In this document: positions 221-21,324 of the stretch, piece by piece
Layout: the number at the start of each line of letters is the position of its first letter
How positions within the stretch are numbered: position 1 is the first letter of the stretch
NCBI GenBank assembly: GCA_045611725.1
Contig: JAZKXQ010000208.1
Coordinates: 1 to 26,516, forward strand
DNA: 26,516 nt
Reading direction: 5' to 3'
Origin: Oscillospiraceae bacterium
Lineage (GTDB): Bacteria; Bacillota; Clostridia; Oscillospirales; Ruminococcaceae
Position numbers and translations under genes: made by a program
The notes under the pieces: model-generated
Told to the model about the DNA's origin: nothing
Databases searched by the model: none
What the model saw: the letters and a program-made list of their open reading frames with translations, nothing else

Positions 221-1360
221 TTATTGTCCCAGTTTTGAGTGCACTCTGGCTTTCAAATCTGAGATGGTTTTTGACATATTATTTGGATCGAAGGTAAATT
301 TCTTTTCTTCGGTCGCTGTGTTTGGGGTAGATTTCAGAGATACAGCTTGAAGCTTTTTATTCAAATCTACAGCTGGTTTTGGTTGTTCTACGACTGGAGC
401 TGCAGGTTCGTTTTTGCGTTGAAAGTCCATAAAGAAAGCATAAGCAGATTCCAAGACTTCTTTTGCGGATTTGTCTGGGTTATCTGTTCTTTCAAGGGCT
501 ACTATTTTGTTGAATCTTGGATCATCCAGTAGAGCAATGTCTTGAGGATGAGTATATTTAAAGTCTTCAACAGCTTCCCTTGCTTCTTCGACCACAGCGT
601 CTTCATTTGCAACAGAATTATAGAATTGAGTACGTTCTTGTTGTCTACGATTCTGTGCTTCACGTATCTCATAGTCAATTCTTTGTTGTTCTGAGAATTG
701 GCGTGGAGTTTTCAATTGTTCCTCTGAAATACCATATCTTTGCATAACAGTATTGATCAAGGTTATAGGATCTCTTACTTTGATCACTGTACCGATAGCT
801 TGATTAAGAGTGGCATCTGGATTATCCTCTACCGCAGCAACCCAATCTACTACATTCTTAATTACTTGGTTTTCGGAGATGTTGGCATTACGTGCAGTCT
901 GTTTGATATAAGCATTTGCACTACCAAGTTCTTCTCTGCGTTTTTGTTCTGATGACTGATTCTCTTTGTACTTTGAAGCGAATCTGTCTGCATCTTGAGC
1001 GTTTCTTACCAATGTTGATTTTACACTGTCTGGTAAGTTCTTCCATTCTTTTACTACATCAAGACCAATAGATTTCGGAATATTGTTCTCAGTAGCAAAC
1101 TTTTTCAAATCCTCTTCAGTAGGTTCAGGTTCTTCAGAAGGTTCTTCCTCTTTCACCTCTTCCTTTTTTTCGTCTGCAGGGACTTGGGAATCTTTTACTT
1201 CGTCTTCTTTTTCTTCTGTGACGGTTTCTTCTTCTGGCTTGGCTTCTTCTGTTGGTTTTTCTTCTTCAACGGATTCAGCTTCTTTACCAGCTTCTTCAAT
1301 AGTTGTACGAACTTTTTCAGACAATTCTTCAGCATTTAATAACTTTTCGGTTTTACTCAT
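221..1360 (-). CDS. Capsid scaffolding protein (putative)
   Basis: 379 aa; E/K/P-rich disordered N-terminus, helical or coiled-coil middle, short basic C-terminal helix; immediately upstream of the capsid gene; RBS AAAGGAAAG. Confidence 0.68.
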   Translation of the reverse strand: MSKTEKLLNAEELSEKVRTTIEEAGKEAESVEEEKPTEEAKPEEETVTEEKEDEVKDSQVPADEKKEEVKEEEPSEEPEPTEEDLKKFATENNIPKSIGLDVVKEWKNLPDSVKSTLVRNAQDADRFASKYKENQSSEQKRREELGSANAYIKQTARNANISENQVIKNVVDWVAAVEDNPDATLNQAIGTVIKVRDPITLINTVMQRYGISEEQLKTPRQFSEQQRIDYEIREAQNRRQQERTQFYNSVANEDAVVEEAREAVEDFKYTHPQDIALLDDPRFNKIVALERTDNPDKSAKEVLESAYAFFMDFQRKNEPAAPVVEQPKPAVDLNKKLQAVSLKSTPNTATEEKKFTFDPNNMSKTISDLKARVHSKLGQ

Positions 1361-1867: not shown

Positions 1868-2224
1868 TTAATCACCCATAAGTTCATCCATAGAGATTTT
1901 TATATTTTCGCCTTCAAGATTTGTTACTTTTGTCTTGAAGTTTGGTGTTTTGGTACTATAAGAAACTGATTTTAATTCCTTATCAACCTCAACCTCAGCA
2001 CTGTCAGCCTGTTGTGGTATTTCACTGGACTGATATTGAACCTCTTCCAAATCTCTGTTCTGAGGCTCTGTAGATAGAACAACAGCTGTCAATACTTCTG
2101 GTTGTTCAATTACCTTTATGGATTCTGTGTTTGTTCCTCCATCTCTATTTACAATCTTATTTTCCAAAGATGTAGAAACAGAATAATTACAATCTACTCT
2201 TAAAATCATATCTTCTCTATTCAT
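1868..2224 (-). CDS. Hypothetical protein (probably virion-associated)
   Basis: 118 aa; TAATG overlap with the upstream tail gene suggests translational coupling. Confidence 0.7.
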   Translation of the reverse strand: MNREDMILRVDCNYSVSTSLENKIVNRDGGTNTESIKVIEQPEVLTAVVLSTEPQNRDLEEVQYQSSEIPQQADSAEVEVDKELKSVSYSTKTPNFKTKVTNLEGENIKISMDELMGD

Positions 2225-3828: not shown

Positions 3829-4734
3829 TTATAATCCTGTTACTATATCGCTGTTACTGAATCCATCTGGTACTGGTTTTGAGTGTGTTCTTGAGCCTTT
3901 ACCAATTTTTATTCTTTTTCCAGACTTGGCCAAAGCTTGATATGTACCCAATAGATTCTTATAGCCTGTTTCCAATTCTTGATATGTTGATAGTCCTTTG
4001 TCTTTTTGCCATTTATAAGCTGTACCCAAAGTCAACAATAAATCAGGAAGAATAACTATATCTGTATTATTGGTTACATGTTGTTTTCTTACCCCGTCTG
4101 AATCTTTTACTGGTAGATTTGAGAAGTAGAAGAAAGAAACCTGTGTACCATCTTTGAAGCCTGGGAATAAGAATAAACGCTTTCCTCTCAGCTGGAAGTA
4201 ACCATTATAAGATTTTACTTGATACATACGTCTTTTCTGCCATTCTTCATCATCAATAGCAATCATAGGTAAACGTCTTGAAAAATCTACCAAAGTATTT
4301 ACAGAAATTGATTTATAGTCTGGTATCATCTCATCCAAAGGATATTCACACCAAGAACCCAAACATCTCCAAGTAATTCCATCTGATGTTACACCATCTT
4401 GCCCAGGTTTTAAATTCAAAGTAGCAGGAGAAACAGTGGAAATACCAGATGTAAGAGGCTGATAACGATAACCATCCATAGCATTACTTAAAACATACAC
4501 AGGAATTTGATTTTGATAATATTGTGTACCTTCTGCCCATTCAGAGTATGTTGTAAATGTAAATTCTTCCAACATTTCATGAAAATTTACAGTATCAACC
4601 AATTCGTCCAAAAGGGAATTCAAAACCTTTATATTTTCTTGGACATGTAATTCAGTAGAGTTGAAGTAATTACTGATATTACTATACATACCCTCTCTGG
4701 TCAATATGTTATCAAGAAGTTCTTTTGCTGTCAT
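3829..4734 (-). CDS. Tail tubular protein A / head-tail adaptor
   Basis: 301 aa; helical N-terminus (LLDNILTREG...VLNSLLDEL), YPL..PDY, LFLFP, and C-terminal LPDLLLTLG.AYKW..DKGL.Y pattern typical of podovirus adaptors. Confidence 0.62.
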   Translation of the reverse strand: MTAKELLDNILTREGMYSNISNYFNSTELHVQENIKVLNSLLDELVDTVNFHEMLEEFTFTTYSEWAEGTQYYQNQIPVYVLSNAMDGYRYQPLTSGISTVSPATLNLKPGQDGVTSDGITWRCLGSWCEYPLDEMIPDYKSISVNTLVDFSRRLPMIAIDDEEWQKRRMYQVKSYNGYFQLRGKRLFLFPGFKDGTQVSFFYFSNLPVKDSDGVRKQHVTNNTDIVILPDLLLTLGTAYKWQKDKGLSTYQELETGYKNLLGTYQALAKSGKRIKIGKGSRTHSKPVPDGFSNSDIVTGL

Positions 4735-8355: not shown

Positions 8356-10450
8356 ATTATATTACTCCTTATAAATCGAAATAAATTGTGGCACTTGAAG
8401 CTCCCCACCTTGAGGAATAGAAATCAAGCCCTTCTATAACTGAACGTGCGTCTGCTCTGAAGTGAATAGCTGTTATATTTGTATACATAAACATATCAGT
8501 AAAAGCATTTGAATTTGATACTGTTGTAAGAGCAGGGAAAGAAATAGTTGTAATATATGAACAATTATACATCATTTCTTTACATGCATAACTTCCAGAT
8601 ATTGATGATAAGTTTGTAAATGTTATACTTCTTACAGCTTGAGATTGATAAAACATACCTTCACAAGCAGATGTACCATTTATACTTGTAAGACTTGATA
8701 AATCTACTGTTATAGTGCCTGTTGATTGATATTGGTTTCTTGCGTCTATATTATCAAAAGCATGATAACAAGCCCTTGCACCATTTATTGCAGTAAGATC
8801 AGGGAAACTTATCGTAGATTGATTTTCAAAAGCTTTATGACAAAATGCATATGATAAACCAGAAGCCCCAATTGTTTCAACATCTGTAAAAGTAATTGAT
8901 GGAAGCTTATTTACAGGTATTATTGCACCATTATTATCTACACCACCAATGAAATTATCCAGTGTAGCTCCATATCTTCCACTTACACCATTATCTTTCA
9001 AAAATGCTGGAACTGCTTGATTTGGGTTTGTTCCTATTACAAATTTGGCCATTATTCGTTTGCCCCCCATTCTTTAAAGGTTACTACTGTAGAAATACCC
9101 CAAGCAAGATCTGTACCATCATTTGTCAAGAATTTACCAGCTTGGCCAGATGTTGATGGTATTGTACTTCCTCCAGCATCCAAGGCTATTGTGTCTCCTG
9201 TGGATTGATTCAAAGTAAATGAACCTTTGGTAACACCGCCCTGAGTAATGGTTATTGTTGGGTTATATACTGATGGGATCGTTGGCTTATTACTCAAATC
9301 ATTATAAGACCCAGTTGTAGCTACAGTTGATAATGTAGGCTTATTGAGAATCTGTGCTACGCCACTATTTGCATTCCAGTCGGCATTTACTTGTGCTGCA
9401 GGTATGGTAGGTTTGTTTGATAAGTCATTATATGATCCTGTAGTAGCAACAGTAGCCAAACCAGAAGTAGGAGTATAATCATTTGCATCTTCTGCAGCCA
9501 TAGTTCCCAAGGTTGGCTTATTCAATATTTCAGATAAACCAGATGTAGAATTCCAATCAGCGTTTACTTGACCTGTTGCTGAAATTACTGGGTTTGCTGG
9601 ATTTGTTTTGTCTATTGTGATATTTGATCCTTGAGTAATATCAGATAAAATACCCAAATCTGCAGAAGTCTTATTACCAGAAAGCGTTACAGAATTGATT
9701 GAAGGCTTATTTGATAATGTTGAATAATCTGAAATCCCTGGTTGTACACTTGTTTGAGACCATGAATATACACCACCTTCTTCTATACACTTATAAAAAT
9801 ATCCATTGGTGTATGTTGAATCTGTGACCCCTTTGTATTGTACTATCTGATCTGCATGAGAAATATCTGCTGTTGGCATTGTAACATACTGAGGCACAAA
9901 ATCACCAATCAAACCACCTGCATCCAAAGCAATAGTATCTCCAGAAGCTTGGTTCAAAGAGAAAGATCCTTTTGTTACACCACCTTGAGTAATTACGATG
10001 GTTGGATCATTTACTGTTGGTATGGTTGGGGTTCCAGTAAGATCAGAATAAGCACCTGTAGTAGCAACTGTCGCAAGAGAACTTTGATCAGCTGGTGTAT
10101 AACCCAAAGCACTTGTTACATCTGATGAATTGATCCCTGTAATATATCCAGCATCATTTGTAAAAGCACTTATATTGGTTGGGACTACTGGAATTGTTGG
10201 TTTGTTACTTAAATCATTATAATTGCCTGTTGTTGCCACTGTAGATAAATCAGATGGGTCAACAGGAGTATAACCAAGAGCAGATGTAACGTCAGAAGAA
10301 TTGATACCAGTAATAAAGCCTGAATCATTTGTAAGATCAGAAATGTTATCACCAGGCTGCAAAGCTGTGTCGGCAAGAGCCCCTTGAGCATCTGTAGCAA
10401 GTCCCAAATCAGATGAGGTTTTATTTCCAGATAAGGTAGTTCCGTTTATC
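6830..10450 (-). repeat. Protein-level repeat modules shared by the two tail fibre genes
   Basis: Multiple DWN...ILNKP and LATVAT(T/S)G.Y.DL..KP units; three TITQGGVTKGSF(T/S)LNQ..GDTIALDAGG modules; two (I/L)LxDITQGSNI.IDKTNPANPVISATGQ modules. Confidence 0.85.
8369..9052 (-). CDS. Leucine-rich-repeat / beta-solenoid protein (BspA-like), tail-associated
   Basis: About 26-aa repeats ISFPDLTAINGARACYHAF, VDLSSLTSINGTSACEGMF, ITFTNLSSISGSYACKEMM, ISFPALTTVSNSNAFTDMF. Start moved to ATG at 9052 (TAATG overlap with the upstream stop). Confidence 0.6.
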   Translation of the reverse strand: MAKFVIGTNPNQAVPAFLKDNGVSGRYGATLDNFIGGVDNNGAIIPVNKLPSITFTDVETIGASGLSYAFCHKAFENQSTISFPDLTAINGARACYHAFDNIDARNQYQSTGTITVDLSSLTSINGTSACEGMFYQSQAVRSITFTNLSSISGSYACKEMMYNCSYITTISFPALTTVSNSNAFTDMFMYTNITAIHFRADARSVIEGLDFYSSRWGASSATIYFDL

Positions 10451-10704
10451 TGAGGCTTATTAAGCAACTCATTATAATTATTTGTACCACCTCCACCTCC
10501 CCCAGCAATAGTAGGAAGATCAACATATCTATTTATACCATCACCTACTTTCAAAGTGTTCGTATCTGATGTATATACAATTTCACCTTTATCAGGAACT
10601 GGGTTTGTATCTATCCAGTCCTGTTCTATAGCATTACGAACAACCCCACGTATCTTTTGTTTTTTTGGGGTGGTGGTTATTGAATTTACGATAGAAGAAG
10701 TCAT
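9052..10704 (-). CDS. Tail fibre protein with Mtd_N-like N-terminal domain
   Basis: N-terminal DWIDTNPVPDKGEIVYTSDTNTLKVGDGINRYVDLPTI resembles the major-tropism-determinant N-terminal motif; the rest is the same repeat set as 6253-8355. Confidence 0.75.
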   Translation of the reverse strand: MTSSIVNSITTTPKKQKIRGVVRNAIEQDWIDTNPVPDKGEIVYTSDTNTLKVGDGINRYVDLPTIAGGGGGGTNNYNELLNKPQINGTTLSGNKTSSDLGLATDAQGALADTALQPGDNISDLTNDSGFITGINSSDVTSALGYTPVDPSDLSTVATTGNYNDLSNKPTIPVVPTNISAFTNDAGYITGINSSDVTSALGYTPADQSSLATVATTGAYSDLTGTPTIPTVNDPTIVITQGGVTKGSFSLNQASGDTIALDAGGLIGDFVPQYVTMPTADISHADQIVQYKGVTDSTYTNGYFYKCIEEGGVYSWSQTSVQPGISDYSTLSNKPSINSVTLSGNKTSADLGILSDITQGSNITIDKTNPANPVISATGQVNADWNSTSGLSEILNKPTLGTMAAEDANDYTPTSGLATVATTGSYNDLSNKPTIPAAQVNADWNANSGVAQILNKPTLSTVATTGSYNDLSNKPTIPSVYNPTITITQGGVTKGSFTLNQSTGDTIALDAGGSTIPSTSGQAGKFLTNDGTDLAWGISTVVTFKEWGANE

Positions 10705-10728: not shown

Positions 10729-10758
10729 CTTTACATCTATTAAGTATTCTTTTTTTTC
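10729..10758 (-). promoter_or_regulatory. Candidate phage late promoter L3
   Basis: Minus strand GAAAAAAAAGAATACTTAATAGATGTAAAG; overlaps the stop codon of the sigma-like gene and precedes the tail-fibre block. Confidence 0.62.
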
Positions 10759-11141
10759 TTCCATTTGTGGATAAACTTATCTTGGTAGTCTTTTTTATCA
10801 TCTTCAGTCATCCAGTCTCCATCACAATTTCCGACTGAATAATTGAAAAATAACTCTTCTCTCCTGAGTTGTCTGTCTCTCGTTACCTTTTTGATAATAT
10901 CTCTCCCAATAACAAGCTTCCAAAAACCAACACAATCTTTATGGTTCAAATCATATTGCTTATATTTTTCCAAACACTTCAGTAAAATATCTTGTATTAA
11001 ATCTTCTTTATTTACATATGACGCATTCTTACGATAAACAAAATCACGTATAATCAATAAGAAATACATACATAATTGTTTTGTTGGTTCTTTTTGAGAC
11101 AATTTCAATTCAGCCAAAAATGAGTTGTTATCTATATACAT
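10740..11141 (-). CDS. T4 gp55-like (sigma70 region 2-only) late transcription factor, putative
   Basis: Start moved to ATG at 11141 (TAA-A-ATG coupling), 133 aa. YIDNNSFLAELK...YFLLII...NASYVNKEDLIQDILLKCLEKYKQYD...GFWKLVI follows the gp55-family pattern as I recall it (YV.NK.FL..., F..IA, NF.NY.Y.EDMI.D....C......FD, AYFT.II). Confidence 0.55.
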   Translation of the reverse strand: MYIDNNSFLAELKLSQKEPTKQLCMYFLLIIRDFVYRKNASYVNKEDLIQDILLKCLEKYKQYDLNHKDCVGFWKLVIGRDIIKKVTRDRQLRREELFFNYSVGNCDGDWMTEDDKKDYQDKFIHKWKKKKNT

Positions 11142-11142
11142 T

Positions 11143-11502
11143 TTAATTATTTGCGTCTTCTTGTGGTATTTGTACAATAGTCATCGAGTCTTCGTGCTCG
11201 ACTTTTTTTGGTCCATTACGGTATTCATCAATCAAATCAAACTTTCTTTTTTCGTTATCAGCCTTCAGCATTTCTACTTTTTGCTTCTTCAATCCGATAG
11301 AGATCTTTCCAATTGTTTCGAGGGTTTGTACTCGAAGTTCAAGATCCATATTATTAATATTGTTATGTAAAGACTGTGTAAGCTCTACAATCAAGCAATC
11401 TATATCTCTTTCTACATTATCAGCATTCTTCACTTTTCTATTGGTGTGAAGCTCTTTTATGTAGTCCTTAATATCCTTCTTGACTATTGGTTTTTTGCTC
11501 AT
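11143..11502 (-). CDS. Terminase small subunit candidate
   Basis: 119 aa, helical with a coiled-coil segment and C-terminal KVEHEDSMTIVQIP strand as in many TerS; adjacent to TerL but downstream of it. Confidence 0.42.
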   Translation of the reverse strand: MSKKPIVKKDIKDYIKELHTNRKVKNADNVERDIDCLIVELTQSLHNNINNMDLELRVQTLETIGKISIGLKKQKVEMLKADNEKRKFDLIDEYRNGPKKVEHEDSMTIVQIPQEDANN

Positions 11503-11503
11503 T

Positions 11504-13000
11504 TTATCTTCTTCTTGTTCTTGTAAGATCTATTCCAGGATCAAGTACTCTATCCAAATCATGTTCAATTTCTGTTTGGATAAGTCTTTGTTGTTCTCTA
11601 TAAATTCTCTTGTTCCGTTCTTCTTCTGTTTCAAATCTCTCAGACTCCATAGCGTTTTTCATACCAGTAATTGAATAAATAAAGGCTGATGTCATGTGAG
11701 AGAATTCATCGTGCTTCAATTTTTCACTCTTCCAAACACTATTTATTGGGTCATAGTCATAAATAGACGAGTTTAAGCACTCGATGAGTCTATGAGTAGT
11801 ATCTTTGTTGAAATAGCAATTCTTCAGTTCAGATCGTGCTATATCAATTTGTTCGTTTTGTTTCAATCTTGGGGCTATCCAGACTTGAAATCCGTCCTTT
11901 TCTGCTTGTGCTCTTCTTGTAATTCCCATAGACCATTCAGTGTTATCACCATCATGAGGAAACACCAAACGTCTGATTTGAGGGTAATTTCTTCTCAACC
12001 AATCCCTATAGAAAGGCCAGGATTCCATACTTCTTTCATAACAATCTACAAATCTCCAACGATTATTATAGTATTGATAAACAGTAATAGCAGTCGAGTC
12101 ATAGTGCCCGATGTCAAATGCAGCAAAAGTCTCAAACTGAGGTACTACTTCATATTTTCCTACATGTTCTGGGTATTTATTGAGTTCAGGACCAAAGATC
12201 GAGCCCCTTACCTCGTTGCCATATTGACCAAATAAGAAGCGTTGTTGGTCTGATTTTGGAAGCTTCATAAGGACTTTCTCTATATAATCCTCTTCAATAT
12301 TTTCTATGTTATCAATTGGATTAAGAGTAACAGCTATCATTTCTTTTGGATCAAGCTTTATTTCAGGATCGAGGGGGTTTATATGTTCATGGTATTCTTT
12401 ATAAGTCCAGTGAGATTTGGTGGTAGGATTCAGAACATCAATCTCCATCAACTTACAGAATTTATCTTCTTTATAGTGTTTTACCTTTTGAGCAAGACGT
12501 GTACGAAGCTTCTGGACTGATAAGAAGTTGATTTCACTACATTCATCAAAGAAAAGAGTAGCAAATTCAGTACCCAAAAGTCTTTCTACGTCTTTTTCAT
12601 TACCAATACCACGGAAGATTATTTGAGAACCATTGGGAAGAGTAAAGATAGATTCCCCCCAATTCATCCCATTTCCCATCCAAGCTTTATAAAGAGCAGG
12701 ATATTTGATTTGAAGGACTTTTGGGAAGGTATCACGTATAATAGCTGTTTTCAGAGAATTGAATGTTTGACGGGCTATAAGATGACGAGAACCAGGATAA
12801 AGAACAGCTCTGGACACTACCTTATCAACACTACGAAATGATTTACTGCTACGAGATCCACCCACCAATAAGACTTTCAAAATAGCAGAGTTTTGGTAAA
12901 AGGCTTCATTAAGAGCTTTTACTCGATCTTTTTTACTGTCGAGTTGCTCTTGTGTTATAACACCCTTATCCAGTAATCTACTTATAACATCTGCAATCAT
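11504..13000 (-). CDS. terL: Terminase large subunit
   Basis: Walker A-like GGSRSSKS, Walker B FFDECSE, motif LNP, nuclease motif AAFDIGHYDSTAI, and FPHDG; 498 aa. Confidence 0.92.
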   Translation of the reverse strand: MIADVISRLLDKGVITQEQLDSKKDRVKALNEAFYQNSAILKVLLVGGSRSSKSFRSVDKVVSRAVLYPGSRHLIARQTFNSLKTAIIRDTFPKVLQIKYPALYKAWMGNGMNWGESIFTLPNGSQIIFRGIGNEKDVERLLGTEFATLFFDECSEINFLSVQKLRTRLAQKVKHYKEDKFCKLMEIDVLNPTTKSHWTYKEYHEHINPLDPEIKLDPKEMIAVTLNPIDNIENIEEDYIEKVLMKLPKSDQQRFLFGQYGNEVRGSIFGPELNKYPEHVGKYEVVPQFETFAAFDIGHYDSTAITVYQYYNNRWRFVDCYERSMESWPFYRDWLRRNYPQIRRLVFPHDGDNTEWSMGITRRAQAEKDGFQVWIAPRLKQNEQIDIARSELKNCYFNKDTTHRLIECLNSSIYDYDPINSVWKSEKLKHDEFSHMTSAFIYSITGMKNAMESERFETEEERNKRIYREQQRLIQTEIEHDLDRVLDPGIDLTRTRRR

Positions 13001-13419
13001 AAATATTCAGCCCACTTCGAGGTATAGTACTCGTCTGCGGTCATAGAATAAATGTATAAATAACTTGGATCTTGACGTAAAACACCAGTAAAAAGAAAAC
13101 CAAGCCCTTCTGTAAACCTGACAGACTGAAAGTTATCTATCTCTATAAACACATTACAAATAGAAGCCTTTTGAAAAACATAATTGAGTACTTGGGAAAT
13201 AAATTCTGGATTACAACATGTACGATCTTTTACAATATGATCCATAATTGCAGTATCATCATTTATTTCAACCAAAGCCCAGTATCTTTTATGGTCTGTA
13301 AGTATTTGTTTATCCGAAGAAATAATAAGATGAGGAAGAGACTTTTTTATTACTTCAGCCTCTTCATCAAAACCTTTCATACCATAAGTCAAAACATCAA
13401 ATAAAGGCTTTCTCAACAT
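12997..13419 (-). CDS. GNAT-family acetyltransferase
   Basis: C-terminal N..S.RF.E.LGF...G.LRQ......YSM motif of RimJ/RimL-like GNATs, common in podovirus tail modules; ATGA overlap with terL. Confidence 0.7.
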   Translation of the reverse strand: MLRKPLFDVLTYGMKGFDEEAEVIKKSLPHLIISSDKQILTDHKRYWALVEINDDTAIMDHIVKDRTCCNPEFISQVLNYVFQKASICNVFIEIDNFQSVRFTEGLGFLFTGVLRQDPSYLYIYSMTADEYYTSKWAEYL

Positions 13420-13420
13420 C

Positions 13421-14710
13421 TTACTTCTCCACAGATATATAATCCTTTTGAGAGTTCAGGATCAGGGAAGCTACTTCAAATGCGTTTTTGATTTGAGACT
13501 TAATACAAGCTGCAGAATCAATAATAGTGTCATCTGGTATAATCCTTCCTACCTTTCTCCAAACTGATGAGAAGATTTTACGGTATTTCCATGGTAGTTC
13601 TTTGGATATTCTGTATAATTCATAACCTGCACCTGGAACATATCCTTCTCTGAGGGCTGATAAAGTGGAAAGAATAGTATCTTCAACATGATCTTTCTTT
13701 TCCGACAAACCAGCTACAGAATCAGAACCAACCTTTATTTTGCAGATCTTACTTTCAAACCGTGCAACTCTTTCCTTCACTTGGTTCTTTTCTTCCCCAG
13801 AGTTTTTGTCAGACTTCTTCAATCTTTGGATATAGGCTGATAATTCTTTGGTCTTTTTGAATTCAATCAATGTAGCGTGTCTTCTGATGTCAATTTTGGT
13901 TACACAAGAAGATAGAGTCTGTAGATCCAAGAACAAATCAGCTTTTTTATTTTGAGGGAAGTATGTAGTATCAATATGTACATAGGAGCCAATTCCCTTC
14001 AGTTGATTTTGTTTCATGGCATCTACACACTCTTCGGAGCAACTCCCAATCACCACCAAAGGTTTATGTTGTTGTGCTGCTTGAGAGGCTGGGATAGACA
14101 ATTCAGATAATGTAATTTGATCCTTAATAAAGAAAACTGGATCAGAAAAAACACAAGACCCAGTAGCTGTATTTGCAAAGAAAGGATCAGACATACCCAA
14201 ATTCAAATAGTAGCCTGTCAATTGTTCATATTCAATCCCTGCGTCAAACTTCTCTTCAATAATATAATGCCCATCCACACCATTATGTTTTATAGCTTCT
14301 GTAATAGGTTCAGCAATCTCTCTATCTGAATTGGCAGGAATCATAGCTACGTTAAATAAGTCTTTTTCAACATCTACAGGCATTTTTTCAGCATCAATAG
14401 TAGCAGTAATCCAACCAATAAGATCTTTCAGTTTTGGTAAATCTTTTCTATCAAGTCTTTTTACCATCTCAGAAGCCAAAAGCATAACAGATGTACTACT
14501 ATCACCTGTTTCTTCTACTTGTTTCTTACTGGCCTGACGTAAAAGTTTGAACATGTGCGTTGGGTCTTGGATTTTATAAGCAACAGAGAAACCGTCTTTT
14601 GTGCAGACAGCTTCATTGTTTTTATAGTCAATAGTTACAAGTCTTCCTTTTGGCCCAAGAGTCCCTACAACCAAATCTACCTGTTTTTGAGTTTTCTTAT
14701 CAATTTTCAT
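13421..14710 (-). CDS. groEL: Compact GroEL-like (group I) chaperonin
   Basis: TLGPKG, TKDG.SVA, GDSSTS (for GDGTTT), ANSD, KPLVVI, ERVAR, IKVG, EKKDHVEDT...EGYVPGAG, IIDS; 429 aa versus about 545 for bacterial GroEL. Confidence 0.9.
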   Translation of the reverse strand: MKIDKKTQKQVDLVVGTLGPKGRLVTIDYKNNEAVCTKDGFSVAYKIQDPTHMFKLLRQASKKQVEETGDSSTSVMLLASEMVKRLDRKDLPKLKDLIGWITATIDAEKMPVDVEKDLFNVAMIPANSDREIAEPITEAIKHNGVDGHYIIEEKFDAGIEYEQLTGYYLNLGMSDPFFANTATGSCVFSDPVFFIKDQITLSELSIPASQAAQQHKPLVVIGSCSEECVDAMKQNQLKGIGSYVHIDTTYFPQNKKADLFLDLQTLSSCVTKIDIRRHATLIEFKKTKELSAYIQRLKKSDKNSGEEKNQVKERVARFESKICKIKVGSDSVAGLSEKKDHVEDTILSTLSALREGYVPGAGYELYRISKELPWKYRKIFSSVWRKVGRIIPDDTIIDSAACIKSQIKNAFEVASLILNSQKDYISVEK

Positions 14711-14721
14711 ATCTTTCCTTC

Positions 14722-15279
14722 TTATTTGTTATCCAGTAATTGTTTCAAAAGTCCAGTCAAATCAGCCACTTGTTGTTCCAAAGTTTCAATCTTTTGTTGT
14801 TCTGGAGTCTTTTGTTTTTCTTTATCCTTCCAAACCCTTCCCAATAATTTACATGTATCATCGGGAGAAATTTCAACAGCAAAATCATAAATCAACTGTT
14901 CTTCATCAAATTGAATATCATCTGGAAAACCTGGTCGAAACATTCTGTACATTTGGTTGAATTTTTCTTTCCAGGGGTATAATTCTGATAATTCGCTTGG
15001 TTCATATTGTTTATTTTGAAAGTCTGAAAAAGTGAAGTTACGTTCAAAATCTTCATATGAGTCCTGATAGTAGATTTTATGGCCTGGTTTAAGTCTTGTA
15101 AGAGTCAGTTCACCAGTATTGATTTCCATAAAAGGTACAAGCTCATATAAGTGTTTTTTTGCCTTCAGTGATCCAGTCTTATTATAGCATAAACGAAAGA
15201 CCAATCTATGAGGCATTTGAGATCTGAACTGAGACCTTTTTTCATAATCCATATCATCTTTATAATCAAATTCTGCCAT
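14722..15279 (-). CDS. Conserved-type hypothetical phage protein with C-terminal coiled coil
   Basis: 185 aa; TAATG coupling to groES; C-terminal IETLEQQVADLTGLLKQL coil; resembles from memory proteins normally encoded just after the capsid gene. Confidence 0.65.
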   Translation of the reverse strand: MAEFDYKDDMDYEKRSQFRSQMPHRLVFRLCYNKTGSLKAKKHLYELVPFMEINTGELTLTRLKPGHKIYYQDSYEDFERNFTFSDFQNKQYEPSELSELYPWKEKFNQMYRMFRPGFPDDIQFDEEQLIYDFAVEISPDDTCKLLGRVWKDKEKQKTPEQQKIETLEQQVADLTGLLKQLLDNK

Positions 15280-15518
15280 TATTTATCATCTCCATCTTCT
15301 ACAAACAAAGCATCTTCACCAAAAATATAACTATACCGAGTGTCGATTTTGCGGTTGTTTCCTTTATAAAAATAGACAATACAACCCTCTTGAATATAAT
15401 CAGGCACTTCTACACCAGTTTTTATCACTGTACCTTTGGATAATTCAGATACAGAGAAGTTATTTTGGTCTGCATGTTCTTCAATAATAATAATATCGTG
15501 TAAAGGTATTAAATTCAT
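15279..15518 (-). CDS. groES: GroES-like co-chaperonin
   Basis: MNLIPLHDIIII matches GroES N-terminal M.I.PLHD.V.V; then KGTVIKTG and IQEG.IVYF; 79 aa; one gene upstream of groEL. Confidence 0.75.
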   Translation of the reverse strand: MNLIPLHDIIIIEEHADQNNFSVSELSKGTVIKTGVEVPDYIQEGCIVYFYKGNNRKIDTRYSYIFGEDALFVEDGDDK

Positions 15519-15533
15519 ATGTTTTCCTTCTTG

Positions 15534-15863
15534 TTAAAATGTTCTTGTTGATTCAAGTTTTGTAAGTTGCTTGATTTTCTTTTCTTTATTTCTTATACCA
15601 CGGAGATTTATATTTGATTTTACAGATCTATCTTTTTTACGTCTTGATAAATTGAGTGTTGAATTATTAAGTCTTCTTATAGTCTTTTTCGCTTCTTCAA
15701 ATTCTTCCTTCTCTTGTCTTTCTCTTGTAATCTTTTCTTTCTTTTCCAATTCTTCTACTGATTCTGTAACGTTTCTTTTATTGTTCTTTTCCATCCAGTT
15801 TTGAAGTTCTTGTTCGTTATTTATACTTGTTCCGTCATATGTTGTAAAAGGATCAAAACTCAT
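15534..15863 (-). CDS. Hypothetical protein with basic C-terminus
   Basis: Start moved to ATG at 15863 (RBS AAAGAGGAAAG). FTTYDGTSINNEQELQNWMEKNN resembles small proteins usually found near portal or scaffold genes. Confidence 0.65.
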   Translation of the reverse strand: MSFDPFTTYDGTSINNEQELQNWMEKNNKRNVTESVEELEKKEKITRERQEKEEFEEAKKTIRRLNNSTLNLSRRKKDRSVKSNINLRGIRNKEKKIKQLTKLESTRTF

Positions 15864-15880
15864 TATTCTTTCCTCTTTGT

Positions 15881-16038
15881 GTTGGGGCAGGCCGGACGAA
15901 CTTACTCGCATATCCCCGCTTTCTGTATCCAACCCAAATCAAAAAGGTTGATCCTTCCTGTTGGCGGCCTGATAAACTTTGTGAGAGCTGGAAAAGGTAT
16001 TATCAAAATGGCTTAAAAGTTCGAAAAACCAGCTCTCA
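15881..16038 (-). ncRNA. Candidate structured RNA or 5' leader (unknown class)
   Basis: GC-enriched intergenic stretch with a 10-bp stem TGAGAGCTGG/CCAGCTCTCA (16038-15982) and a 7-bp stem CAGGCCG/CGGCCTG (15971-15888) enclosing further short helices. Confidence 0.4.
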
Positions 16039-16090
16039 TGATATAATAGAACTATATTTAAAAAATTTTTGTATCTTTTTTTTCTTTCTC

Positions 16091-16459
16091 CTATTTATTT
16101 AATTTTGATATAATAAATTCTTGGCATTCTTCAATAGTTCTCCAACAAAAATAATTATACCCTTCTGCTATTAAACGATCTCTCCAGACTTTTTGTTCAG
16201 GTGATAATCTTCCAGTCGGGGCCTTAAGCTCGATGAAAAACACTCCAGTCCTATGAATCACTACAAGATCTGGTATACCCTTTGACCATCCACGAGCTTT
16301 TGACCACTGAGTAAATCTGATTCGCCCCTCTATAGTTGGTATAAAATGCAAAGCTGGACCAACCGCATCTGTCTGAATAGGAATATAATTGTGTTTACGT
16401 AGAAGATTTACCACTTGAACTTGAAGATCGTTTTCTGATTTTATAGTCTTTCTTCTCAT
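16091..16459 (-). CDS. VRR-NUC domain nuclease (Holliday junction resolvase-like)
   Basis: E..LQ..V, GIPDLVVI, FFIELKAPTGRLSPEQKVW...L...G; textbook VRR-NUC PD-(D/E)xK motif. Confidence 0.85.
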   Translation of the reverse strand: MRRKTIKSENDLQVQVVNLLRKHNYIPIQTDAVGPALHFIPTIEGRIRFTQWSKARGWSKGIPDLVVIHRTGVFFIELKAPTGRLSPEQKVWRDRLIAEGYNYFCWRTIEECQEFIISKLNK

Positions 16460-16465
16460 GTCTGT

Positions 16466-16494
16466 ATTATATTATATTTAATAAAAATTTACAA
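16466..16494 (-). promoter_or_regulatory. Sigma70-type promoter
   Basis: TTGTAA-N17-TATAAT, preceded by TTAAAC; the ATG of VRR-NUC begins 7 nt after the -10. Confidence 0.7.
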
Positions 16495-16512
16495 GTTTAA
16501 TAAAAGTCTCTC

Positions 16513-16554
16513 AAATTTGCCCCAGATTGTAAAAAAGTGCATTCAGGCTATAAC
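16513..16554 (-). promoter_or_regulatory. Upstream operator-like element (copy 1)
   Basis: GTTATAGCCTGAA-N13-AATCTG-N2-GCAA; second copy at 18109-18148 on the + strand. Confidence 0.5.
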
Positions 16555-17369
16555 TACTCATCCCCACCTTCAAATTCTTCTGTATGGTCAAAAAAATCGG
16601 GTTCTTGTTCATTTTCATCAGTATCCTTTACTTCATCTTCTTGTTTTTCATCTTCTTCAAACAAAAAGTTCTCAATATTACTTTCTTTTACCACTTTATG
16701 TAGATAGCTTTTGAATACACTTGAGTCTCTACTATATTGTTCACCCCAACAGTTGGTAAGTCTTTTGAAGGCGAGTTTTATTTTCTTTTCTGATTGTCCC
16801 TCAAGGCCGAAGTATTTTACATAATTATCAATCCATTCTCTGACTTCGAGGCCTCTCAGAGAAAAAGAACCCCCACCATTTGGCCCAAAACGATTATAAA
16901 AAGCTTGATCTATATCCTCTATATCGTAGATTTTATCATCTTTTTCATCAAATAACCATCTACACCATATGACTCTCTTATATTCTTCTTTTCTTATGTC
17001 TTCAAATTCTTGTTTTGTAGGAAAAATAAGGTCTTTATAATCAAACCTCTCAACCTGACGTGCAAAAACATCATACCCCCACTTAACAAAATCTGGATGC
17101 CACATATAATCTTCAATATTACGAGCACCGCCCATATAAAGGTCCATAAACACCCTTTCCTTCGCATAACGGTCCGGCCCCCTATTTACTTTGACCATCT
17201 TGAGATTATGTTTTTTTACCACTCCCTTCAGTATTTCTGTTCTTGAGGTACCAGATCCTATAAATTCCTCTTTGCTTCCAATCATGCCGATAAATCTTGA
17301 AAACTCCCTTTCTCCTTTTTGGTAGAGTTGTAGTATTTGTTCTTCTATATCAATCATTTTATTTTTCAA
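16554..17369 (-). CDS. Hypothetical protein with acidic tail
   Basis: 271 aa; TTG start 7 nt after AAGGA (or ATG 12 nt later); no family recognised. Confidence 0.72.
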   Translation of the reverse strand: MKNKMIDIEEQILQLYQKGEREFSRFIGMIGSKEEFIGSGTSRTEILKGVVKKHNLKMVKVNRGPDRYAKERVFMDLYMGGARNIEDYMWHPDFVKWGYDVFARQVERFDYKDLIFPTKQEFEDIRKEEYKRVIWCRWLFDEKDDKIYDIEDIDQAFYNRFGPNGGGSFSLRGLEVREWIDNYVKYFGLEGQSEKKIKLAFKRLTNCWGEQYSRDSSVFKSYLHKVVKESNIENFLFEEDEKQEDEVKDTDENEQEPDFFDHTEEFEGGDE

Positions 17370-17380
17370 GTCGAGTCCTT

Positions 17381-17560
17381 TTATTCTTTCTTAATCACAA
17401 TTTCTACACTACGAACATCATCATGAGACTGCATCTTCAATAAACAATCCTCTATTATATCATCAAAGCTACTATGATCGTAATAATCCAAATCAACGTT
17501 TCTTGTTATTGTTTGAAGTTCTTTACCAATTACTTGTTTGAGTTTTATAACGGCTATCAT
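17381..17560 (-). CDS. Small hypothetical protein, 59 aa (not in ORF track)
   Basis: RBS AAGGAAAG; MIAVIKLKQVIGKELQTITRNVDLDYYDHSSFDDIIEDCLLKMQSHDDVRSVEIVIKKE*; fills the gap up to the RBS of the next gene. Confidence 0.65.
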   Translation of the reverse strand: MIAVIKLKQVIGKELQTITRNVDLDYYDHSSFDDIIEDCLLKMQSHDDVRSVEIVIKKE

Positions 17561-17635
17561 TTTCTTTCCTTGTTTTTTGTTGATGTTATATAGAACCGTT
17601 TTTGAAAGAGAAGAATTTGATAAAAAAAATAAATG

Positions 17636-17934
17636 TTGGTTGGGTTTGGTGAGACTTTATTCCAGAGAGTTCGTTTTGTGGTATACCATCCTTACATAAA
17701 AATGATATAAAAATTGGTTGGGTTTTGGTACGGATTTGTGGGCTCTCAAGGACTCAAAAACAACGTCATAAACACGTCATAACATACGTGTACTCTTTAA
17801 TAGTTAAGAGCTTAAGTACATAAATAATAAAATAAATAGATAAATAACCAAACCAAATAAATAATTAAATAATTAAAATACAAGATTTAAGTTTGGAGCT
17901 TAATAACGAACTATCTGGAATTAACCAAACCAAA
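17636..17934. repeat. Symmetric iteron-like repeats in AT-rich divergent region (origin or control candidate)
   Basis: TTGGTTGGGTTT(T)GGT at 17636 and 17714; opposite-sense TAACCAAACCAAA at 17845 and 17922; central tandem ACGTCATAA; long A/T tract. Confidence 0.5.
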
Positions 17935-18108
17935 ATATATTTCTTTTCTTTGGTTACTTTCTTTGCTTTGTGATAGGGTATAAAAAACAAGATGGTAAAA
18001 GTCCTGATCTGAGATGAAATAGAAAATGTTGTCTTGAGTCCTTTTATAAAATCAAAGATAAGGCACTTTTTTTGAGGCGTGAGTGGGTGTAAATATTTTT
18101 CTGGTATG

Positions 18109-18148
18109 GTTATAGCCTGAAAGTGTTTTTGAATAATCTGAAGCAATT
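18109..18148 (+). promoter_or_regulatory. Upstream operator-like element (copy 2)
   Basis: GTTATAGCCTGAA-N13-AATCTG-N2-GCAA, same spacing as copy 1. Confidence 0.5.
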
Positions 18149-18190
18149 ATAGCATTTTTATTTAATATGAGCTGGATCGAAAAATTAAAC

Positions 18191-18219
18191 TTGCAAGACT
18201 ATTTCTTACATGATATATT
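18191..18219 (+). promoter_or_regulatory. Sigma70-type promoter
   Basis: TTGCAA-N17-TATATT, preceded by TTAAAC, upstream of the + strand module. Confidence 0.6.
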
Positions 18220-18271
18220 TTTTTTCGTAACAAGGTTCTATATATCGTAATGGATGTAAAATCTGTTATTT

Positions 18272-18314
18272 GGGGGTGAGGGTTCTTCTTATCATTTAAT
18301 CCTCCCTCACCTCC
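18272..18314 (+). promoter_or_regulatory. 5' leader hairpin
   Basis: GGGGGTGAGGG/CCCTCACCTCC, 11 bp (one G-U), 21-nt pyrimidine-rich loop. Confidence 0.65.
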
Positions 18315-18374
18315 AAGCAATTTTATAAAAGGATGAAATGATTGCGAAACAAAAAAGAAACAAAAGGAAATGAT

Positions 18375-18803
18375 ATGATAAATTACAAAAAGGGTAAATA
18401 CTCTACCTGCACTTTTACAAACGATGAAATTGATATAGAAAAAAACTTATACCCATTCAGAATTGATGTAAGTTTTTATGGTCTCCCAAATTTATTACGA
18501 TTATTTGGTGTTGGCATTGGTTTTAATGATGTCAAAGGTAAATGGAAAAGAGTTTTTAAATATAAAAGTAACAAACTCACACAAATTTATAATAAAACAG
18601 ATGAAGAATCAGGCAAAACAATAACAGTAAAAAAGATTGATTATATTCCTGCATGCATTATAGACGAATTGATGCATAAAATAATGGATGTGATAAATAG
18701 TGATGATTATATAACGACAATTGAGAAAAAGATACAAGCTGATTATAATAGATCACAAACACAAAAATTTAAAAAACAAAATAAGGAGAAAAACAATGAT
18801 TAA
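18375..18803 (+). CDS. Hypothetical protein
   Basis: Start moved to ATG at 18375 behind AAAAGGAAA; K-rich, possibly nucleic-acid binding; no family recognised. Confidence 0.7.
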   Translation: MINYKKGKYSTCTFTNDEIDIEKNLYPFRIDVSFYGLPNLLRLFGVGIGFNDVKGKWKRVFKYKSNKLTQIYNKTDEESGKTITVKKIDYIPACIIDELMHKIMDVINSDDYITTIEKKIQADYNRSQTQKFKKQNKEKNND

Positions 18804-19653
18804 AATATCTGAAACAAACTTTGATTATGTATTTGAAAATGAACAATTAACAATGAAAATATCAAAAAACATCTGGAAGCAATTACCAAAATCTACTCTT
18901 GGGGATGTATTGAAGGATGGTAATGATACTGTAATTTTTTCCAAGACTCCAAATGGTATAAAAATTCAAAAGACATTCAAAGATAAGTTTTTGGTATTTA
19001 ATACTGATGAATACACTTGGGAATATATCAAAAAGTGGGTAAGACACCCTGAAAAACGTGATGAACTGACAGCTGAATACAAAAACTATATGAAGCCTGA
19101 GGAAGTAGAGAAGAGGAAGATAGAGAAATTTGCTGAGCAGTTTGACCCAAATAATCCAGAAAATCAGAAAAAGAAAGATGAAGCCTATGCAAAGATTGAG
19201 GTTGTTGAAGAGGGGACTGTAGGAGTTTCAGGTGACACAGGAAATAAACCAGAAGAAAAGATATTGACAAGAGAAATGGTTGATACTTTGACTTTTGCTG
19301 AATTGAAAGAGAAAATTGTAAAAGAAAAGTATAAAGCCCCAAATTACGCCAAAAGTCAACAATCTATTTTTTCAGAAGCTTGGAGAAAGAGTCATTGGCA
19401 ACTGAAAAACATGGGTGGAAAGATTGGGTTATTTTGGGATTGTGTTTCTCCTTACGCTTATGATTATCAAATTGTGTGGGATATAATGATAAATATGATC
19501 TTTGAAGAGAAAAACACTTATTATACACACAAAACTTACCAAAACGTAAAAGATCAAGTAAAGTGCTGGGAAGAAAAAGCTCAAAAACAAAATAAACCAA
19601 ATCAAAAAGTAGAAATTGATGTATTAAATGATGTTGAGTTACCTTTTGATTAA
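18796..19653 (+). CDS. Hypothetical protein with SSB-like C-terminal tip
   Basis: Start at ATG 18796 behind AAGGAG; ends VEIDVLNDVELPFD; no family recognised. Confidence 0.72.
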   Translation: MIKISETNFDYVFENEQLTMKISKNIWKQLPKSTLGDVLKDGNDTVIFSKTPNGIKIQKTFKDKFLVFNTDEYTWEYIKKWVRHPEKRDELTAEYKNYMKPEEVEKRKIEKFAEQFDPNNPENQKKKDEAYAKIEVVEEGTVGVSGDTGNKPEEKILTREMVDTLTFAELKEKIVKEKYKAPNYAKSQQSIFSEAWRKSHWQLKNMGGKIGLFWDCVSPYAYDYQIVWDIMINMIFEEKNTYYTHKTYQNVKDQVKCWEEKAQKQNKPNQKVEIDVLNDVELPFD

Positions 19654-19655
19654 AC

Positions 19656-19683
19656 TTGCATCTCACATTAAATTTTGTATAAT
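19656..19683 (+). promoter_or_regulatory. Sigma70-type promoter
   Basis: TTGCAT-N16-TATAAT, preceded by TTAAAC like the other two. Confidence 0.6.
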
Positions 19684-19854
19684 AGTTATGTGTAAGGATC
19701 AGAAATAGAAAAGAAAACTGTGTGGGGTGTTCGCAGTATAAAGACTCTGGAAACCTTGATTGAATCTTGGATAACATAAAGACCACCAACACCCTTTCAA
19801 AAATAAAATTCATTCCGAGATAAAAATTTTTTCAGAATGAGTTCTATTTATTAT

Positions 19855-19905
19855 GAGAGCAAGAGTTTTGTTTTACACTATTGCCTTATTTTGTCTCTTG
19901 CTCTC
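19855..19905 (+). promoter_or_regulatory. 5' leader hairpin
   Basis: GAGAGCAAGAG/CTCTTGCTCTC, perfect 11 bp, 29-nt T-rich loop. Confidence 0.68.
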
Positions 19906-19965
19906 TCCCAATTCAAAACAAATAAAGGCGATGGAAAAATAACAAAAAAAACAAAAGGCAATAAT

Positions 19966-20376
19966 ATGATAAATAATATCCCTGATTTCGCAACATTTAT
20001 AATTCCAATTGAAGCTTATGAAAACGACCATGATCTACCAGCACCAACAAAAAGAAATGAATTGGTGTGGGAAGATGAAGTAAAACCAGAACCAAAGAAA
20101 GATATTGAAAGAAAGGAATTTGGATCTGCTATATTGATTTCTTGTATGGGTAAAACTGTTATAAAAGTCAAAGGTAGAGATGGTAAAGAATATAACAAAT
20201 TTACCATTGATGAAAAGAATGATTCCGATTTGGTAGATTTCCTTGATGGTCGTTATAGTGAATTGAAGATAGGCTCAGACTTATTTACGAAAGATAGTTG
20301 GGGTGGAATAGAAAAAAACAACAAATTCTGGCTATCAAAACGTGAAGCACAAGAATGCCAACAACTATTCAAATAA
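19966..20376 (+). CDS. Hypothetical protein
   Basis: Start moved to ATG at 19966 behind AAAAGG; the longer annotated N-terminus runs through the leader hairpin. Confidence 0.68.
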   Translation: MINNIPDFATFIIPIEAYENDHDLPAPTKRNELVWEDEVKPEPKKDIERKEFGSAILISCMGKTVIKVKGRDGKEYNKFTIDEKNDSDLVDFLDGRYSELKIGSDLFTKDSWGGIEKNNKFWLSKREAQECQQLFK

Positions 20377-20386
20377 GGGGGGTAAA

Positions 20387-21028
20387 ATGAGATTCAACAA
20401 CGGAAGTAATCACTATAAACATACACAAGCAAAATACAAAAGGTTTATAGATGGGGAATGGATGGTTAATGGCTTCACAGATTTTGACTCAACATACTTG
20501 GAAGATGATAGGTTTTTTATTCTCGTGGAAGATAAAAACTATAAAATCCAAAATGAGAAGTCTGCGAAATTCCAACTGAGCAGAATGAAACAATTTGCCA
20601 AGTACTTCTCTCTCCCTTTCCTTGGTATCATGACGAAATCAATTGTTCCTGATATTGATAAACACAAAGAATTGGAATACAAAGCAAGAGTACCACTCCA
20701 CAAATGTAAGGTAGTGGCTCTTGTAACAAATATGTATGATGGAGAAAGACTTGAAACACCGGCGGTAATAACATCTGATGAAAACGCACAAGCCAACTTC
20801 AACTTCAACGATATTCAAGCTTGTTTATTTGAGTGGATGGATAGAAATAAATTGATTACTGAAGCAGAAAAACAACAATATCGTGAACTGTACAAAGTAA
20901 AAAGACAAGAATGGTGGATGAGTGAGTTGCGGGATGAAATTATAACACAACTGGCTGATGAAGGGTTGAATAAAGAAGGAAACGACTACTTGAAGGAACT
21001 TGTTGAAGAAGCAGGAGATATGAAATGA
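20387..21028 (+). CDS. PD-(D/E)xK-like nuclease-fold protein (putative)
   Basis: GFTDFD......FFILVEDK motif; start at ATG 20387 behind AAGGGGGGT. Confidence 0.45.
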   Translation: MRFNNGSNHYKHTQAKYKRFIDGEWMVNGFTDFDSTYLEDDRFFILVEDKNYKIQNEKSAKFQLSRMKQFAKYFSLPFLGIMTKSIVPDIDKHKELEYKARVPLHKCKVVALVTNMYDGERLETPAVITSDENAQANFNFNDIQACLFEWMDRNKLITEAEKQQYRELYKVKRQEWWMSELRDEIITQLADEGLNKEGNDYLKELVEEAGDMK

Positions 21029-21324
21029 TTGTAGGACTTATTATTGTATCTGTATTGTGCATTATTTTGACCGTGGAAGCGTATAAATTGATTGTAAGGT
21101 GTAGGGAGCTTGAATTCAAATTACGATGCGTCAGAGCTGCAAATAAAGAGCAAATAGACAGACAAATAAAAAAGAGAAAAGGGGAACAAGAGAACAAGGC
21201 TGAGAATGATTCTTTATTTGAATGTGGTTTCCCGCCTCCAATTGTGTCTTTACCAAAAAACTTTACATTCAAAAATAAAGTTGACAAGAAAATTAAAAAA
21301 AGGCATAATAAGAGTGCAAAATAA
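21025..21324 (+). CDS. Membrane-anchored hypothetical protein
   Basis: N-terminal hydrophobic stretch MIVGLIIVSVLCIILTV, then K/R-rich; ATGA overlap with the upstream gene. Confidence 0.65.
   Translation: MIVGLIIVSVLCIILTVEAYKLIVRCRELEFKLRCVRAANKEQIDRQIKKRKGEQENKAENDSLFECGFPPPIVSLPKNFTFKNKVDKKIKKRHNKSAK

Follow-up and report, generated by a model that had tools for sequence, protein, structure and literature searches.

Chaperonins of the E. coli GroEL/GroES and mitochondrial Hsp60/Hsp10 type are unusually uniform in size, with about 520–580 residues in Cpn60 and 95–105 in the co-chaperonin Cpn10. Two phage co-chaperonins with the GroES fold, T4 gp31 and RB49 CocO, have no roof hairpin; gp31, which works with the GroEL of its host, also has a mobile loop longer than that of GroES. 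The giant phages EL, OBP and AR9, with genomes of at least 200 kb, encode Cpn60 homologues (gp146, gp246 and gp228, respectively) which are about full length and independent of a co-chaperonin, and those of OBP and AR9 have been described as single-ring. In virioplankton, 133 of 337 virome contigs with a GroEL gene also had one for a co-chaperonin; both gene orders occurred, some of the contigs were podovirus-like, and roofless GroES clusters and non-canonical loop residues were reported too (Marine et al., 2017; PMC5649160). Among isolated phages, vB_FspM_immuto of Flavobacterium has a groES (101 aa)–groEL (544 aa) pair in its annotation. Where such phage pairs can be checked, they are of full size and close to cellular GroEL, and the known operons come from marine hosts, none of them reported with a conserved third gene. 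Here we analyse a fragment of phage DNA of 26,516 nucleotides (the window), which is the entire contig JAZKXQ010000208.1 (C208) of a 2.2-Mb, 477-contig metagenome-assembled genome (MAG; GCA_045611725.1), and which encodes a GroEL homologue of only 429 residues, a GroES homologue of 79 residues and, between them, an orphan protein of 185 residues that we call X. In contrast to the known pairs, this one is short, its Cpn60 belongs to a clade of its own and the phage is a gut phage; our literature search found no description of a ~430-aa GroEL or of a Cpn60–Cpn10–X trio. A preliminary description of this DNA had set out from the premise that phages have either GroES only or a GroES-independent GroEL, which is outdated, since phages with both genes are known (PMC5649160; vB_FspM_immuto).

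The 429-aa product passes the Pfam Cpn60_TCP1 model (PF00118) with 71.7 bits against a gathering threshold of 34.3 and matches phrog_5725 ‘chaperonin groEL’ at 1.3e-57. Among solved structures it matches mitochondrial Hsp60 and bacterial GroEL best (3e-29 to 1e-25, phmmer against the PDB), and among NCBIfam models those for GroEL rank far above those for CCT and the thermosome. The giant-phage chaperonin structures are more remote, with 5.9e-16 for EL gp146 (6tmt) and 1.3e-7 for 6hdd, which we take to be the OBP chaperonin, against 3e-29 for the cellular group I proteins. By these matches the protein is a member of the Cpn60 superfamily, nearest to group I, although no ordinary GroEL.

What has been lost was mapped by aligning 11 sequences of the short family with the GroEL proteins of E. 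coli and the host (E. coli numbering throughout). The window's protein is ~120 residues shorter than E. coli GroEL; the family is without residues 2–11 (the N-terminal strand), 110–119, 297–317 (in the apical domain), 428–437, 450–474 and 480–487, and has no counterpart of residues 529–548, the Gly-Gly-Met tail. The inter-ring contacts E434, R452, E461, S463 and V464 lie inside deletions in every aligned member, and 110–119, next to A109, is gone too; a back-to-back double ring is joined through these five contacts and the K105/A109 region. R452, E461, S463 and V464 are the four residues altered in the engineered single-ring GroEL SR1 (R452E/E461A/S463A/V464A), and all of them fall within the deleted 450–474 segment. 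Since the inter-ring contacts, including all four SR1 residues, are missing, the short Cpn60 most likely forms a single ring, and a lid-using ring of this kind is what one would naturally expect from the position of the SR1 sites. The difference is that SR1 carries four point changes, whereas the putative single ring here would result from the natural loss of whole helices.

The ATP site presents a different picture. Residues T30, G32, P33, D52, D87, T89, T90, D398, G414 and G416 are unchanged or conservatively substituted (T to S in two cases) across the 11 members and D495 is either D or E; the motifs LGPxG, TKDG and GDxxT, the catalytic Asp of VED and the I-D of the C-terminal segment are all retained. 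The nucleotide-contacting N479/A480 are not conserved or are deleted, and the R197–E386 pair is not conserved in the family. In the groove that receives GroES and substrate, F204 and L259 (L/I/V) are kept and Y203 is replaced by F in the window's clade only and by A in the distant clade, while L234 and L237 have become S or A, with the caveat that the alignment register of helix H is uncertain. At V263/V264 the window's clade has K together with Q or T, and the distant clade V together with S, A or Q.

The 79-aa product is harder to recognise. As a single sequence it gave nothing above threshold in Pfam, PHROG and NCBIfam (the PF00166 cut-off is 21.1 bits), and its only PDB matches were two Thermus Cpn10 chains at E ~0.3. 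An alignment of 10 diverged homologues from related loci, compared by hhalign with one of nine cellular GroES proteins that the MAG or its relatives encode, matched over the full length (columns 1–92 of 94) with a probability of 88.7% and E 2.5e-6. Nine of the 10 family members match phrog_3188 ‘co-chaperonin GroES’ (best 4.7e-5), three touch PF00166 at E 0.011 or weaker, that is below its gathering threshold, and the family profile cross-matches the canonical GroES which sits beside a full-length GroEL on another contig (L044; E 0.008). The AlphaFold2 model (pLDDT 86.8, dipping to 78–79 at the loop, as for a flexible loop) retrieves with Foldseek only Cpn10 or T4 gp31 in the top 28 rows from the PDB, including gp31 (1g31) with a TM-score by query of 0.73, and GroES in all 30 listed Swiss-Prot matches (0.63–0.77). 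On the profile–profile alignment, the PHROG matches and the predicted fold, the protein is a Cpn10 homologue.

It is 18 residues shorter than E. coli GroES (97 aa), and the loss falls in two places. D8 is separated from the Gly at the end of the next strand by 27 residues instead of 36, so the mobile loop is ~9 residues shorter, about half the usual length of ~18 residues; and the stretch of the roof hairpin has 10 residues instead of 18, with the hairpin absent. Retained are the GroES core, the N-terminal strand (MNxxPLxD) and the C-terminal strand. It is these two terminal strands that build the heptamer in GroES. The absent roof is shared with gp31 and CocO, whereas gp31 differs in its longer loop and in serving a foreign ring, the 79-aa protein travelling with a Cpn60 of its own. 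In the family's loop F21, V23, S24 and L26 are conserved or nearly invariant, and F21, V23 and L26 may replace the canonical loop motif. A prediction of the 1:1 Cpn60–Cpn10 complex, for which controls were not run, scored 0.00, a value that counts neither for nor against binding. Compared with E. coli GroEL/GroES, which have the same two folds, the phage pair is thus shorter by ~120 and 18 residues and without the aligned inter-ring contacts, the GGM tail and the roof. A co-oriented and tightly spaced chaperonin and co-chaperonin, both of them reduced, was also what the preliminary description had proposed, and this is borne out: the three open reading frames (ORFs) are found on the minus strand where it had placed them, homology is established, and the reduction is documented by the deletion map on one side and by the shortened loop and roof on the other.

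Is the reduced pair maintained? The short Cpn60 family comprises 24 clusters of 423–452 aa, all intact and all with PF00118, none of which carries a name apart from one ‘hypothetical protein’. We examined the neighbourhoods of members down to 34% Cpn60 identity together with 14 loci from IMG/VR and GTDB MAG contigs, and in all 24 related loci with sufficient flank Cpn60, Cpn10 and X are present together. The order of the three genes is variable. With ES and EL for the Cpn10 and Cpn60 genes, the arrangement ES-X-EL is found in the window, L045 and L046, EL-118aa-ES-X in L008, EL-...-X-ES in L010 and L014, EL-ES-96aa-X in L006, L011 and L013, and EL-...-ES-107aa-X in L012. Cpn10 and X are nevertheless at most one gene apart in every locus with gene calls and within ~0.5 kb in the 14 further loci, and the module always lies upstream of terL, adjoining head genes. 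NUMOD3/HNH homing-endonuclease genes occur at differing sites (L010, 5825–6223 and 9919–10437; L014, 14030–14515; L012, 8964–9287), one of them, of the NUMOD3 type, between the Cpn60 and X genes of L010, and the shuffled order is partly explained by such insertions at different places in different relatives.

Identity to the window drops in parallel in the three proteins, from 51 to 34% in Cpn60, from 61 to 21% in Cpn10 and from 39 to 22% in X. Pairwise dN/dS between the window, L045 and L046 is 0.04–0.16 for Cpn10, 0.13–0.18 for X and 0.06–0.12 for Cpn60, compared with 0.065–0.083 for terL, all values being rough because dS exceeds 1 and is near saturation. The preliminary description had treated pseudogenisation in relatives as an observation that would speak against its proposal; we looked for it and saw none, the 24 clusters being intact and dN/dS low.

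The same description had called for a phylogeny. When placed in one tree with GroELs from bacteria and phages, the short Cpn60s are monophyletic (SH-aLRT 97–98) on a long stem of 1.85 changes per site and split into two deep subclades with 34% identity between them; their sister group is not to be trusted, as long-branch attraction draws the family to crAss-like sequences. Two crAss-like phages, cr108_1 and phi14:2, are the phage matches that cover most of the Cpn60 query (94–97%); no GroES is annotated beside GroEL in either, and the Cpn10 and GroES profiles, run on cr108_1 alone, found nothing there. The GroELs of Flavobacterium and Vibrio phages fall among bacterial sequences. One of these, in the 195.8-kb Vibrio phage VB_VaC_SRILMA (L051), is full-length, has its gene flanked by those for tail sheath and tail tube and clusters with the E. 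coli protein; in contrast to the short family, it seems to have been captured recently from a gammaproteobacterial host.

What is X then? In its AlphaFold2 model (pLDDT 84.8) an N-terminal domain of the alpha/beta type is followed by a charged linker and then by a long helix at the C-terminus. Searches of Pfam, PHROG and NCBIfam, with the single sequence or with all members, gave no family; Foldseek (PDB, BFVD and AFDB clusters), the Atlas shape search and VIA-align wide gave no fold match (best Z 3.6, best TM 0.34), and Atlas features were below noise level. An exhaustive profile search of 1.84 billion proteins yielded 15 representatives. Two distant X-like proteins (P0166 and P0167) are encoded on short contigs with no chaperonin gene in view on either, in the orders capsid–158aa–X-like–tail protein and X-like–tail protein–amidase-like protein. 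In the distant clade, the gene directly after X is a homologue (343–400 aa) of the window's 379-aa head-module gene; two of its products, of 358 aa (L006) and 400 aa (L012), match window positions 224–1378 at 1e-21 to 2e-29 (phmmer). A small terminase (terS) identity for X was considered and dropped, given the alpha/beta N-terminal domain, the lack of a helix-turn-helix signal and the distant relatives between capsid and tail genes. Because those relatives sit among head and tail genes, X looks like a head/tail morphogenesis protein whose gene has become a neighbour of the Cpn10 gene. Client and adaptor are possible roles, and the neighbourhood may also be a historical leftover. Of the earlier proposal that X is a substrate or adaptor of the pair, the linkage holds in every relative examined, whereas the role is speculation, the distant relatives lying in a head/tail context.

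We consider it probable that the pair is a strongly reduced phage chaperonin of group I type, in which a single ring and a matched lid fold structural proteins of the phage, with X outside the machine. In the proposed mechanism the short Cpn60 keeps the residues that bind and hydrolyse ATP but not the ring-joining segments, and would, judging from the deletions, most likely work as one ring. The short Cpn10, with its core and heptamer edge strands, half a loop and no roof, would most likely be the lid matched to it, because the interface is altered on both sides and neither gene is inherited without the other. The pair would serve to fold one or more structural proteins of the phage itself, the capsid protein or the portal for instance, without recourse to the host chaperonin; structural proteins are suggested as clients by gene position and by what is known for T4, lambda and phage EL. 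X, co-inherited and translationally coupled to the Cpn10 gene, is read as a morphogenesis protein, perhaps a client, and not as a part of the machine.

Several observations weigh against this proposal. The NCBIfam GroEL models, TIGR02348 among them, score 123–137 bits where their cut-offs are 352–582. Residues 2–11 and 480–487, the latter adjoining N479/A480, are among the deletions, so neither ring assembly nor ATPase activity of the short Cpn60 should be taken for granted. The hydrophobic residues of helix H that bind GroES are replaced, and the loop of the 79-aa Cpn10, besides its half length, has no Gly followed by three small hydrophobics (G-I-V-L type); given both changes, the canonical docking mode of GroES may have been lost. 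The oligomeric state, cavity and clients of the short Cpn60 are all inferred, and the selection estimates are as rough as stated above. Finally, sheep-gut metatranscriptome contigs match the regions of Cpn60 (13871–14552) and Cpn10 (15407–15730), but they may stem from DNA in the library, and two raw RNA runs gave 0 to 1 reads.

The changes in helix H could also mean that the two proteins act apart, Cpn10 on the host GroEL as T4 gp31 does and Cpn60 without a lid as in EL gp146, OBP and AR9. Both modes occur in characterised phages (PMC7185714; PMC9598537), and gp31 is among the fold matches of the 79-aa protein. Nevertheless, we regard this arrangement as unlikely. A loop ~9 residues shorter and without the G-hydrophobic-hydrophobic-hydrophobic motif is poorly suited to canonical host GroEL, gp31 having changed in the opposite direction, towards a longer loop; the two genes never separate in 24 loci despite rearrangements and homing-endonuclease insertions; and cellular group I proteins (1e-29) are closer matches of the Cpn60 than EL gp146 (6e-16) or 6hdd (1e-7). 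Much further down the scale, and to our mind scarcely credible, is the idea that the pair is a degraded, non-functional remnant of a captured bacterial groESL operon on its way to being lost. The large deletions in both proteins, and scores far under the curated GroEL and Cpn10 thresholds, are what such decay might leave behind, but 24 intact Cpn60 clusters (423–452 aa) with a common deletion pattern and invariant ATP-site residues, dN/dS as low as that of terL, and retention of the pair in two deep subclades at 34% mutual identity are not.

It is also conceivable that X belongs to the machine. In such a minimal chaperonin, composed of a single 429-aa ring and a short-looped 79-aa lid, X would be an obligatory third component, be it an adaptor, a clamp or a substrate carrier, which delivers substrate or caps the ring and so compensates for the short loop and apical domain; if true, no smaller ATP-driven folding cage would be known, and this one would serve a single structural protein of the phage. 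The translational coupling of X to the Cpn10 gene, its distance of at most one gene from Cpn10 in gene-called relatives (~0.5 kb in the 14 further loci), the purifying selection on it and the near restriction of its family to this clade all speak for an intimate relation. However, the location of P0166 and P0167 between capsid and tail genes, with no chaperonin visible on their contigs, and that of the head-module gene after X in the distant clade fit a structural or morphogenesis role instead, and neither fold nor family searches tie X to chaperones. We judge an obligatory role of X to be quite improbable, and the two-component ring and lid, with X outside, remains the reading that we prefer.

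The three genes are part of a tight minus-strand array (Table 1). The start codon of X overlaps the stop codon of Cpn10 by one shared base (TAATG), X and Cpn60 are separated by an 11-nt gap containing AAGGA, the Cpn60 gene is followed after 1 nt by a 140-aa gene (p140), and the latter overlaps terL by 4 nt. The array ends in terL, which agrees with the packaging-operon position given in the preliminary description. Its list of neighbours fared unevenly. The ‘GNAT’ is p140, for which one PHROG match (phrog_4470, E 5.6e-4) points in that direction, while the Pfam and NCBIfam searches matched nothing. This gene occupies the usual small-terminase position, but no terS, which had been named as a neighbour, was found in the window. 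A gene of 139–147 aa stands immediately before terL in the near-clade loci with visible terL (L008, L014, L045 and L046); pairwise alignments, made for the L045 and L046 copies only, give 68–74% identity to p140. The ‘sigma-like gene’ is probably a 145-aa ORF at 10740–11177 (minus strand), two genes downstream of terL, to which the name fits weakly: its matches to sigma-70 region-2/ECF have E values of 1e-4 to 1e-3 and that to phrog_1740 8.6e-4. A promoter and terminator scan of positions 11000–19000 was uninformative, with 27 promoter-like sites, fewer than the 34.5 in shuffles.

Table 1. Genes of the chaperonin array and of the head module in the window.
Feature	Position	Strand	Basis or comment
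MCP (major capsid protein), first 66 codons, cut by contig end	1..198	-	matches MCP family, 6.8e-15
379-aa head-module gene, directly upstream of MCP gene	221..1360	-	local phmmer
Large terminase terL, 498 aa, final gene of the ES-X-EL-p140-terL array	11504..13000	-	PF04466 6.9e-12, PF03237, phrog_979 7.6e-25
140-aa gene (p140), function unsettled	12997..13419	-	weak acyltransferase-like match; between Cpn60 gene and terL
429-aa reduced Cpn60/GroEL homologue (P0001)	13421..14710	-	ORF where the preliminary description placed it
Gene X, 185 aa, orphan protein (P0002)	14722..15279	-	ORF where the preliminary description placed it
79-aa reduced Cpn10/GroES homologue (P0003)	15279..15518	-	ORF where the preliminary description placed it
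Portal gene, cut by contig end	25055..26516	-	phrog_12082 8e-59; ~680 aa at full length in G021

Just upstream of the Cpn10 gene, an ORF at 15534–15932 (minus strand) is listed as 132 aa from a TTG start; since the relatives L045 and L046 have a gene of 108–109 aa at this place, its true start is probably an internal codon. Three genes upstream of Cpn10 lies a VRR-NUC nuclease (16091–16459, minus strand; PF08774, 5.9e-11), which is also present in L046.

The window ends within the portal gene on the right and the MCP gene on the left, and the rest of the genome can be read from a complete relative, the IMG/VR record G021 (35,087 bp with 127-bp terminal repeats, CheckV completeness 100%), whose Cpn60 is 99% identical and which has 82–96% nucleotide identity along the window. 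The 9 kb beyond the window hold the remaining portal, tail-fibre-like genes, a holin and the capsid gene, and related phage records are 34–38 kb long. Neither tape measure nor sheath was seen. The portal is closest to Mx8/Mx9, Brucella Tb-type and other podovirus portals (23–26% identity, tblastn), and the MCP homologue of G021 (323 aa; positions 32619–33590 of G021) matches phrog_9953 ‘major head protein’ at 9e-52; MCP and portal are the candidate clients of the chaperonin. The complete relative and the nearest portals support the small podovirus-like phage of the preliminary description, with a genome of ~35 kb.

Other genes of the window include two tail-fibre-like paralogues on the minus strand (6253–8355, 700 aa, and 9052–10704, 550 aa) with PHROGs 9729, 17509 and 24985 in common, the 550-aa protein having Mtd_N (PF18454) as in tropism-determining fibres. 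A 533-aa amidase-like gene (2224–3825, minus strand; phrog_5107, 2e-35), probably encoding a tail-associated lysin, follows the gene for a 301-aa tail protein (3829–4734, minus strand; phrog_6013); this pair is kept clade-wide and adjoins the X-like genes in the distant contigs L053 and L054. On the plus strand, positions 18342–21324 form a divergent block of five ORFs (153, 310, 179, 228 and 99 aa) with no family matches and opposite GC and AT skew, probably an early or regulatory region.

A nucleotide comparison of 8 kb of the window with 50,697 phage records gave no match and so no close cultured relative; close relatives are found in goat, cattle and sheep gut metagenomes (20 runs, 15 studies). 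Assigning a host from MAG bins was rejected as unreliable, related contigs being binned with Alphaproteobacteria, Christensenellaceae, Methanobrevibacter and the Clostridia-like bin of the window. That same bin holds a second, 4.5-kb contig (G000:C320, L002) with an 80% identical Cpn60 and an X homologue, and the presence of two related phages in one bin makes the bin poor host evidence. In the distant clade, one member (L041, CASETE010000014.1, 61.4 kb) lies within a contig of an uncultured proteobacterium, and another (L006) has a phage integrase (8327–9343) just upstream of the Cpn60 gene; the distant subclade may be temperate, and the L041 contig may give its host.

Phage GroES and GroEL pairs are already documented and the biochemistry of this one is predicted, which keeps our interest in it moderate; what is new is the strong reduction of both partners. 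The phage, which is widely distributed in gut metagenomes of cattle, sheep and goats, spends ~6% of a 35-kb genome on a folding module of its own, in a chaperonin lineage that has been shortened by a fifth and yet is under strong selection. It points to the parts of a chaperonin that evolution can remove, namely the inter-ring interface, some of the apical domain, the GGM tail, half of the mobile loop and the roof, and offers a minimal natural system in which single-ring function, the size of the cavity and the docking of the lid could be studied structurally and mechanistically.

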